Under the pieces are notes generated by a model. That model was not told where the DNA came from. It did not search any database and worked only from the letters and a program-made list of their open reading frames with translations. DNA of 64,000 nucleotides, taken from NCBI RefSeq assembly GCF_003334765.1, contig NZ_QOWT01000017.1, one strand, 5' to 3'. Position 1 is the first letter of the stretch. Each line of letters opens with the position of its first letter. This document shows, in pieces, positions 17,812 to 37,961 of the stretch. This DNA comes from Escherichia coli. Its GTDB lineage: Bacteria > Pseudomonadota > Gammaproteobacteria > Enterobacterales > Enterobacteriaceae. Position numbers and translations under genes: made by a program.

Positions 17812-17902
17812 AACGCCTCCTGACGCAACAACTTACCCGCACAAAATAGAATTGTGCTGTACAAACGTCCAGTTGGAAAGGCATTTCCTGCGAGGCGCTA
17901 CG

Positions 17903-22264: not shown

Positions 22265-22327
22265 ATAATTGGCGGTTACTGTATATTCCTCAAGCGCAAA
22301 TTATTCATGCCGAAGTGAAGGACTTTC

Positions 22328-34998: not shown

Positions 34999-37161
34999 TT
35001 ACACCGACTCCAGCCGGGCGTATGCCGCCACCAGCCATTTAATACCCTGGCCCTGAAATGCCACCTGCAAACGGCTATGCTCACCGCTGCCTTCCATATT
35101 GACAATGGTGCCTTCACCAAACTTAGCGTGGCGTACGCGCTGGCCGAGCTTGTAGCCGCTGTCGTTCTCGACCATCGGCGTACCCATCCGCTGATGGCTG
35201 ACCGGGCGGCTTACCGTGGCGCGCAGGCGCACCTCTTCCACACACTCTTCCGGCAGCTCGCCGATAAAGCGCGACGGGCGATGGTAAACCTCTTTACCAT
35301 ACAGACGGCGGGTTTCCGCGTAGGTCAGCGTCAGTTTCTGCATCGCGCGGGTTACGCCAACGTAGGCCAGACGGCGTTCTTCTTCCAGACGCCCGCCTTC
35401 ATCCAGCGACATCTGGCTTGGGAACATGCCCTCTTCCATACCAACGATAAACACCTGCGGGAACTCCAGGCCTTTCGCCGAGTGTAGCGTCATCAACTGC
35501 ACCGCATCCTGCCAGGTATCCGCCTGCCCTTCACCTGCTTCCAGTGCCGCATGGGAGAGGAACGCCTGCAGCGGCATTAAATCTTCGTCTTCTTCGTTGT
35601 AGCTGAACTGGCGCGTTGCCGTCACCAGTTCCTCTAAGTTTTCGATACGCGTCTGACCTTTTTCGCCCTTCTCCTGCTCATACATGGTACGCAGGCCGGA
35701 GTCTTTAATTACCCGGTCAGTCTGTACATGCAGCGGCATATCGGCAGTTTCCTGCGCTAAGGCGTCGATTAATTCCATAAATCGCTGCAAGGCGCTGGCA
35801 GCTCGCCCGGCGAGGGCTTTTTCCTGCAACAGCTCACGACATGCCTGCCAGAGTGTTAACTGGCGATCGCGCGATGTCTGACGTACCACGTCCAGCGTCC
35901 GGTCACCAATACCCCGCGTTGGCGTATTCACCACACGCTCAAAGGCCGCGTCGTCGTTGCGGTTGGCAATCAGGCGCAGATACGAGAGCGCATCTTTGAT
36001 TTCCTGGCGTTCGAAGAAGCGCATCCCGCCGTAAATACGGTACGGCATACTGGCCTGCAATAACGCCTCTTCGAGCACCCGCGACTGGGCGTTGCTGCGG
36101 TAGAGAATGGCGCACTCGGCAAGCGCTCCGCCGTTGTCCTGCCAGGTTTTGATGCGGTTAACCACAAAACGCGCTTCATCGAGTTCGTTAAAAGCGCAAT
36201 AGAGGGAAATAGGCTCACCGTCCGCGCCATCGGTCCACAGTTTTTTACCCAGACGCCCGTTATTGTTTTCAATCAGGGCGTTAGCGGCGCTCAGAATATT
36301 GCTGGTAGAGCGGTAGTTTTGCTCCAGACGAATAGTTTCGGCACCGGGGAAATCATTAAGGAAACGCTGAATATTCTCCACCTGCGCCCCGCGCCAGCCG
36401 TAGATTGACTGGTCGTCATCACCGACGATCATCACTTTGCCGGTGTCGCCCGCCAGCAGGCGGATCCACGCGTACTGAATGTTGTTGGTATCCTGGAATT
36501 CGTCCACCAGGATATTGGTAAAACGTTCGCGGTAGTGTTGCAGGATATGCGGCTTGTTAAGCCACAACTCGTGAGCGCGCAGCAGCAGCTCGGCGAAGTC
36601 CACCAGGCCCGCGCGGTCACACGCTTCCTGATACGCCTGATACACCTTCTGCCAGGTCTGCTCCACCGGATTACCGTAGCTTTGAATATGATGCGGACGC
36701 AGGCCTTCATCTTTCTGGCTGTTGATGTACCACATTGCCTGCCGCGGCGGCCACTGCTTCTCGTCGAGGTTCATGGCTTTGATCAGACGCTTAAGCAGGC
36801 GTAGCTGGTCTTCACTGTCGAGGATCTGGAAATCCTGCGGCAGATTGGCGTCCATATGGTGCGCACGCAGCAAACGGTGCGCCAGCCCGTGGAAGGTGCC
36901 GACCCACATACCGCCCTGGCTCGTGCCCATCAGTTGCCCGATACGATGACGCATCTCCGCCGCCGCTTTGTTGGTAAACGTCACCGCCATAATCGAGTAT
37001 GGCGAGCAGTTTTCCACGCTCATCAACCAGGCGATACGATGCACCAGTACGCGCGTCTTACCACTGCCCGCGCCCGCCAGCACCAGAAGGTTGCTGCGTG
37101 GCGCGGCCACCGCTTCGCGCTGTTTGTCATTAAGGCTGTCGAGCAGGTAAGAAACGTCCAT
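34999..37161 (-). CDS. uvrD: DNA helicase II (UvrD)
   Basis: 720 aa from MDVSYLLDSLNDKQREAV with Walker A GAGSGKT; track ORF extended 63 codons upstream. Confidence 0.95.
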   Translation of the reverse strand: MDVSYLLDSLNDKQREAVAAPRSNLLVLAGAGSGKTRVLVHRIAWLMSVENCSPYSIMAVTFTNKAAAEMRHRIGQLMGTSQGGMWVGTFHGLAHRLLRAHHMDANLPQDFQILDSEDQLRLLKRLIKAMNLDEKQWPPRQAMWYINSQKDEGLRPHHIQSYGNPVEQTWQKVYQAYQEACDRAGLVDFAELLLRAHELWLNKPHILQHYRERFTNILVDEFQDTNNIQYAWIRLLAGDTGKVMIVGDDDQSIYGWRGAQVENIQRFLNDFPGAETIRLEQNYRSTSNILSAANALIENNNGRLGKKLWTDGADGEPISLYCAFNELDEARFVVNRIKTWQDNGGALAECAILYRSNAQSRVLEEALLQASMPYRIYGGMRFFERQEIKDALSYLRLIANRNDDAAFERVVNTPTRGIGDRTLDVVRQTSRDRQLTLWQACRELLQEKALAGRAASALQRFMELIDALAQETADMPLHVQTDRVIKDSGLRTMYEQEKGEKGQTRIENLEELVTATRQFSYNEEDEDLMPLQAFLSHAALEAGEGQADTWQDAVQLMTLHSAKGLEFPQVFIVGMEEGMFPSQMSLDEGGRLEEERRLAYVGVTRAMQKLTLTYAETRRLYGKEVYHRPSRFIGELPEECVEEVRLRATVSRPVSHQRMGTPMVENDSGYKLGQRVRHAKFGEGTIVNMEGSGEHSRLQVAFQGQGIKWLVAAYARLESV

Positions 37162-37219
37162 TGGCACCGCCGCGTAAAAATAGGTTGGGCGGAGAAGCGC
37201 AACGCCCTCCGCCAAAAAG

Positions 37220-37235
37220 CTGGGTATATATACAG
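37220..37235 (-). promoter_or_regulatory. LexA (SOS) box in the uvrD promoter
   Basis: CTGGGTATATATACAG = CTG-N10-CAG with central TATATATA, about 60 bp upstream of the uvrD ATG. Confidence 0.8.
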
Positions 37236-37244
37236 ATTTGCTGA

Positions 37245-37961
37245 TTATATCAGCGAGGTCAGAGATGCCAACCGGGAAATTTCCAGATGCGGCAGTAAAC
37301 GGCTGTCCCAGGTTTGCATCAGATCGCCATTTTCCGGTCTGATCCAACAAGCCTGCATTCCGCTGCGAATTGCCCCACCCACGTCAGTGGTGAGATCGTC
37401 CCCAACATGTAAGATCTCGCCGATCGGCACGTTGAGTTTTTCCGCAGCCAAAAAGTACATATCGCTGAACGGTTTTGAGCGCCCGTGCGGGCCAGCGCGC
37501 AGCACAAACTCAAAATAATCCCCCAAACCAAACAGCTCCGGCTGGGCGTTACCGTTGGTGATCGCCACCAGCGGCCATTTCTTCGCCAGCTGTTTTAAGG
37601 TGTCGTGAGTTTGCTGCGGGACGTCGATTCGGCTGCGCCATTTGGCAAAGTTGATCATTGCTGCGTGTGCGCCTGCACTGGCTTCTTCGGCACTCAGCCC
37701 GGCGTCGAGCATCGCTTGTTCAATCGAACGAAAACGCCAGCGCGTCACGTCGTGATAAATCTCGGGTTCCGCTTCCCGTACCGCCTGGCGCAGGCGTTGC
37801 AGATCTTCATTCTGGAAGCTGCGCAGCGCCGGATGATAATTTTGCACAAAGGTAAGCGCCTCTCGCTCGGTGCGCAAAATCACCGGACGGTTATCGTAAA
37901 GGGTATCATCCAGGTCAAAGGTGAGCGCCGAGATGCGCCCCAAAGGCCGGTAAAAACGCAT
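37245..37961 (-). CDS. yigB: HAD-family phosphatase YigB
   Basis: 238-aa ORF with HAD motif I ([12 protein letters not shown]). Confidence 0.88.

Follow-up and report, generated by a model that had tools for sequence, protein, structure and literature searches.

The 16-mer at positions 37220-37235 is, with very high confidence, the core of the LexA operator of the Escherichia coli uvrD promoter, with the promoter-operator layout and mode of action described below. A second palindrome lying just upstream is the extended -10 element (TGnTATAAT) of the same promoter, overlapping the yigB stop codon, and is not a separate operator.

The window, meaning the whole 64,000-nucleotide stretch of DNA that was analysed, is from Escherichia coli, and the 1 kb around the site is 100% identical to many RefSeq chromosomes, where it is annotated as yigB-uvrD. 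The 16-mer reads CTGGGTATATATACAG on the plus strand (37220-37235) and CTGTATATATACCCAG on the minus, or coding, strand (37235..37220). As the initial annotation had stated, it lies in an 83-bp spacer between yigB and uvrD, which spans 37162..37244. The second palindrome reads GCTGATTATATCAGC on the plus strand, at exactly 37240-37254, and GCTGATATAATCAGC on the minus strand. It had been described as directly abutting the LexA box, but 4 bp (37236-37239) separate it from the 16-bp core, and 10 of its 15 bp (37245-37254) fall within yigB, stop codon included. The features of the region are as follows.

37961..37245, minus strand: yigB coding sequence, from the open reading frame and the RefSeq annotation of identical sequence, with its TAA stop codon at 37247..37245
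37266..37271, minus strand: -35 hexamer TTGGCA, inside the yigB coding sequence at Leu-Ala codons
37240..37254, no strand assigned: second palindrome, GCTGATTATATCAGC / GCTGATATAATCAGC, which arises from the extended -10 together with the bases flanking it
37244..37252, minus strand: extended -10 element TG-A-TATAAT, with TG at 37252..37251 and TATAAT at 37249..37244 (TG plus a 6/6 hexamer)
37237, minus strand: predicted start of uvrD transcription, at an A lying 7 nt past the -10 and placed by the usual -10 to +1 spacing
37218..37237, minus strand: LexA operator (SOS box) 20-mer ATCTGTATATATACCCAGCT, with the 16-bp core CTG-N10-CAG at 37235..37220, a heterology index of 7.82 and conservation in other species
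37188..37213, minus strand: leader hairpin GGCGGAG-GGCGTTGCGCTT-CTCCGCC in the uvrD 5' UTR, -17.9 kcal/mol when folded on its own
37176..37180, minus strand: run of five T, 7 nt downstream of the leader hairpin
37159..37171, minus strand: conserved block GGCGGTGCCAATG, comprising the Shine-Dalgarno (SD)-like GGCGGTG and the uvrD start codon
34999..37161, minus strand: coding sequence of uvrD (DNA helicase II), from the RefSeq annotation of identical sequence, with its ATG at 37161

On the minus strand, CTGTATATATACCCAG contains the invariant CTG-N10-CAG of the E. coli-type LexA operator, and its 10-bp centre, TATATATACC, is A or T at 8 of 10 positions. The 16-mer thus has the consensus fit and the AT-rich centre that had been attributed to it. 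The bare pattern is a poor guide, occurring 29 times in the window against a mean of 13.8 expected from dinucleotide shuffles, with none of 100 shuffles reaching 29. The excess probably arises because both trinucleotides, CTG and CAG, are frequent in E. coli coding DNA and their frequency is lost on dinucleotide shuffling. Because the bare count does not discriminate, it was set aside in favour of a Berg-von Hippel heterology-index (HI) matrix for the full 20-mer, built from 17 E. coli LexA boxes in Table 4 of PMC3009722, with uvrD left out.

With this leave-uvrD-out matrix, ATCTGTATATATACCCAGCT (37237..37218, minus strand) reaches HI 7.82, better than any other of the 127,962 positions in the window. 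Under an exact null with the base composition of the window, 0.028 sites as good as this are expected per window, or about 2 per genome, and such a score arose in 3 of 200 Markov-1 random windows. Of the 29 CTG-N10-CAG matches, the uvrD box alone has an HI below 10. The initial annotation had proposed scoring with a LexA matrix, taking a high HI as grounds for rejection; the value is low both here and in the literature, where it is 8.5 (Courcelle 2001, as quoted in PMC11228462). Validated boxes scored by leave-one-out range from 0.6 (umuD and sbmC) to 12.8 (dinG), which places uvrD in mid-range, within the HI below 15 that is quoted in PMC11002266 as the criterion for functional LexA sites.

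The proposal of a LexA box at uvrD is also borne out by identity with a known site. Table 4 of PMC3009722 gives AAATCTGTATATATACCCAGCTTTT as the uvrD box, upstream of the UV-induced uvrD gene, and the box in the window is the same letter for letter. The locus has a single box: between 36900 and 37520 there is no second LexA box with HI below 18, the next best 20-mer scoring 18.1.

The operator adjoins the promoter of the gene it would regulate, with 6 nt between the 6/6 -10 hexamer and the start of the 20-mer. In the promoter scan, TTGGCA-16-TATAAT with TG is a near-consensus sigma-70 promoter matching at 11 of 12 positions (5/6 at -35 and 6/6 at -10). Only two 11/12 matches occur in the 64 kb, counting both strands, and the uvrD promoter is the only one of them with a TG. 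The other, TTGTCA-16-TATAAT, lacks TG and begins at position 39, minus strand, at the window edge (about 1-39). Given the predicted start at 37237, the LexA 20-mer would span approximately +1 to +20 of the uvrD transcript.

The promoter forms part of the 3' end of yigB, an arrangement that holds throughout Enterobacterales. The yigB stop codon TAA (37247..37245) forms the middle of the uvrD -10 hexamer (TA-TAA-T). This gives the second palindrome, whose role the initial annotation had left open, an ordinary identity: it is the extended -10 together with flanking bases. The earlier remark that its spacing is wrong for LexA is correct, since it has the form CTG-N7-CAG and the best overlapping 20-mer has an HI of 21.3. 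On this basis it was rejected as a LexA site.

Comparison across species separates the promoter element from the symmetry around it. In 39 Enterobacterales loci aligned on the -10, the T, the G and all six TATAAT columns are 100% conserved, while the outer arm columns that make the palindrome are only 59-79% conserved. Pairing of all six arm positions is found only in E. coli and E. albertii, with five of six in many Enterobacteriaceae. In Erwinia, Pantoea, Yersinia and Serratia the -10 persists although no more than 1-3 of the 6 arm positions pair. Because TGnTATAAT is invariant and the arms are variable, it is the extended -10 that selection maintains, with the dyad symmetry incidental.

The same alignment bears on the idea that GCTGATATAATCAGC, besides being the -10, also serves a second dimeric regulator as its operator or binds LexA as a non-canonical site. 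Several features would suit such an operator: all 6+6 arm positions are symmetric in E. coli and E. albertii, five of six pair in many Enterobacteriaceae, and the palindrome overlaps the -10, a classic position for a repressor. Conservation that follows TGnTATAAT rather than the arms, the persistence of the -10 in Erwinia, Pantoea and Yersinia after most arm pairs are gone, and an HI of at least 21 as a LexA site speak against it. In addition, the Reg-Seq mutagenesis study has one repressor site at uvrD, that of LexA. A second operator is consequently very improbable, and the reading of the palindrome as an extended -10 is retained.

The LexA box itself is conserved well beyond E. coli. We fetched 80 uvrD loci from other species of Gammaproteobacteria, covering Enterobacterales, Vibrionales, Alteromonadales and others, and scanned the 300 bp upstream of uvrD. 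A LexA-like 20-mer with HI of 10 or less is present in 58 of the 80 loci, and with HI of 12 or less in 67, against a chance expectation of about 10^-3 per locus derived from per-position probabilities. In the boxes, conservation reaches 100% for the CAG and 99% for the TG of CTG. The relation to the promoter is kept too: of the 70 loci that have a box, 60 show a TATAAT-like hexamer, exactly TATAAT in 57 cases, that lies upstream of the 20-mer with a gap of 0-12 nt, compared with 6 nt in E. coli. At the -35 position, TTGGCA, TTGGAT or TTGGCT is found in most Enterobacterales loci.

Some lineages depart from this pattern. Among the 70 loci that have a box, 23, many of them from Vibrio and Photobacterium, combine a perfect right half (CAG) with a left half that reads ATG or TTG. 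Most Shewanella loci (among L048, L051, L054, L058-L060, L064, L074 and L075) have no low-HI 20-mer in the 300 bp upstream of uvrD, their best values being 12.9-21.5. Within E. coli the region is almost invariant. Of 5,426 complete genomes, 5,411 carry an identical copy of the 61 bp reaching from the -35 through the box, and 5,372 an identical 61-bp leader, whereas the surrounding 1 kb is at least 99% identical in only 1,860.

These data also dispose of the suggestion that CTG-N10-CAG is here a chance palindrome in an AT-rich promoter region, with no LexA function. The bare pattern is indeed common in the window, exceeding the shuffles, and alternating AT-rich runs of TA are frequent near promoters. 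The full 20-mer is a different matter, with only 0.028 sites of its quality expected per window. Orthologous boxes stand in the same place relative to the -10 in 67 of 80 species, the sequence equals the published uvrD box, and uvrD is damage-inducible. Conservation effectively refutes a chance origin, which we consider extremely unlikely.

Downstream of the operator, the leader contains a GC-rich hairpin followed by the run of five T. The gap of 7 nt between them shortens to 4 nt if two A-U pairs are added to the stem with a bulge. No U-tract occurs at 0-2 nt after the stem, and because of the 7-nt gap the terminator scan made no call at the hairpin. An Rfam scan of the yigB-uvrD spacer gave no family at E<=1, and neither an alternative antiterminator structure nor a leader peptide was identified in the uvrD leader. 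The fold of the whole 89-nt E. coli leader is not significant (z +0.55). The box-to-SD segment folded alone has a z of -2.05 (locus L002).

Hairpins recur in other genera without homology between them. Box-to-SD segments of other Enterobacterales fold better than dinucleotide shuffles, with a median z of -2.2 and 18 of 28 loci below -2. The leader from box to ATG ranges from 12 to 134 nt and differs in sequence, and non-homologous hairpins occupy the same place (loci L003-L044, upstream of position 1201), with T-runs after only some of them. The title of a 1983 paper by Easton and Kushner names both the lexA repressor and attenuation, and the E. coli leader hairpin fits the attenuator reported at uvrD. 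The hairpin is probably this poorly studied attenuator, a terminator of yigB read-through, or both. A broader proposal, in which it is a maintained regulatory element that ends yigB read-through and attenuates uvrD, possibly under regulation, is unlikely, and the alternative that an extra factor binds the perfect palindrome around the -10 of E. coli and E. albertii is less likely still.

The remaining alternative, in which the second palindrome acts at the RNA level, as a hairpin terminating or stabilising the yigB message, is scarcely credible. It spans the yigB stop and could form a 6-bp stem with a 3-nt loop, but the structure is weak (-5.2 kcal/mol) and AU-rich, has no T-run after it and no conserved stem, and was not called by the terminator scan; it was rejected as a terminator. 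As the place where yigB transcripts end, the stronger leader hairpin (-17.9 kcal/mol), 30 nt further downstream, is the better candidate.

The start region shows its own pattern of conservation. Nearly all Enterobacterales leaders carry (G)GCGGTGCC(A/T)ATG or ACGGTGCCTATG, with unrelated sequence upstream. The GGCGGTGCC(A/T)ATG block, which includes the uvrD start codon, is thus conserved across the order while the rest of the leader is not. Its GGCGGTG is presumably an SD-like element with unusually short spacing to the start codon.

Together, these elements suggest a simple regulatory scheme. A strong sigma-70 promoter, TTGGCA-16-TGaTATAAT, sits in the last codons and stop of yigB, followed downstream of the -10 by the LexA 20-mer, the GC-rich hairpin, the T-run, the SD-like block and the uvrD ATG. 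In undamaged cells, we infer, a bound LexA dimer would impede RNA polymerase, either in forming the open complex or in escaping the promoter. Once DNA is damaged, LexA would cleave itself under stimulation by RecA and free the promoter, a step well established for the SOS response (PMC11228462). A middling operator (HI about 8-9) combined with a near-consensus core promoter would be expected to give leaky repression, with substantial basal expression, and a modest, early induction. Partial termination at the leader hairpin, in other words attenuation, probably lowers expression further.

The sequence, its score, the promoter match and the conservation come from the present analysis; the damage inducibility and lexA control in this scheme are taken from the literature, which lists uvrD as an SOS gene and agrees with the expected expression pattern. 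Its induction is about 2-fold with AZT (PMC11228462), reaches a log2 fold change of up to 2.2 with ciprofloxacin (PMC11002266) and also follows UV (PMC3009722), with uvrD described as an 'early' UV promoter that peaks at 35-38 min at all doses. PMC3738151 contains no uvrD data. Reg-Seq mutagenesis classes uvrD as simple repression, with a single repressor site matched by motif to LexA. In Salmonella, nalidixic acid induces uvrD, and the box there has an HI of 11.48, higher than that of E. coli. Basal heterogeneity of uvrD expression in Salmonella is LexA-independent, which suits substantial basal expression but, like the higher HI there, also counts against the scheme. So do a remark in Reg-Seq that the database evidence for the uvrD LexA site had been graded 'low-evidence', the modest size of the induction in E. 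coli and the non-canonical form of the leader hairpin as a terminator.

The uvrD SOS box is already known, and the central points made here are not new. The box reportedly appears in the compilations of Lewis 1994, Fernandez de Henestrosa 2000 and Courcelle 2001, and the promoter is said to have been described in 1983 by Easton and Kushner. What is gained is an ordinary explanation for the second palindrome, as an extended -10 lying over the yigB stop. Together with the rmuC box 19 kb away, the uvrD box also serves as a positive control for LexA-matrix scanning of the window.

The second-best LexA match in the window is AACTGGACGTTTGTACAGCA (minus strand, 17855-17874), in the udp-rmuC spacer upstream of rmuC (yigN). 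It scores HI 10.3 on the plus strand and 11.8 on the minus strand. rmuC/yigN is a listed SOS gene with a published HI of 8.8, and the match is its known SOS box, which provides an internal positive control for the matrix. A further candidate, TACTGTATATTCCTCAAGCG (22277-22296), has a perfect LexA left half-site and lies between the divergent metE and metR genes, with about 30 nt separating its end from the metR ATG. It carries CAA for CAG and has an HI of 10.87, a score expected about 0.3-0.4 times per window, and was treated as chance.

The uvrD leader shares with intrinsic terminators and leader attenuators a 5' UTR stem-loop that is GC-rich and has a T-run after it, but unlike a canonical intrinsic terminator its T-run starts 7 nt past the stem. 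As an extended -10 (TGn-TATAAT) sigma-70 promoter, the uvrD promoter has the expected TG at -15/-14, a 6/6 -10, a 5/6 -35 and 16-bp spacing. It differs from other promoters of this class only in lying in the 3' end of the upstream gene with a stop codon inside the -10.

Comparison with the recA (TACTGTATGAGCATACAGTA) and sulA (TACTGTACATCCATACAGTA) boxes, as the initial annotation had suggested, shows a common CTG-N10-CAG core and AT-rich centre, and each of the three boxes overlaps its own promoter. Unlike uvrD, the recA and sulA boxes keep the flanking TA...TA and an ATACAG right half. The uvrD box departs at positions 1-2 (AT), 14-15 (CC) and 19-20 (CT), and these deviations make it the weaker operator. 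Its HI is correspondingly higher: leave-one-out values are 7.44 for recA and 6.05 for sulA against 7.82 for uvrD, and published values are 5.0, 5.4 and 8.5, respectively (quoted in PMC11228462). The uvrD-less matrix gives recA 4.86 and sulA 3.94, although it contains those two sites themselves. A mid-to-weak operator, weaker than those of recA and sulA, is consistent with leaky, modestly induced, 'early' expression of uvrD.

The second lexA box (AACTGTATATACACCCAGGG; PMC3009722, Table 7) has the same CTGTATATA left half and CCCAG right half as uvrD. The flanks of the two differ, and lexA has two tandem boxes where uvrD has one. The closest counterpart is the published E. coli uvrD SOS box and promoter, which has the same sequence, the same gene and the same position. 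There is no difference between them, and the site described here is that same site in another E. coli genome.
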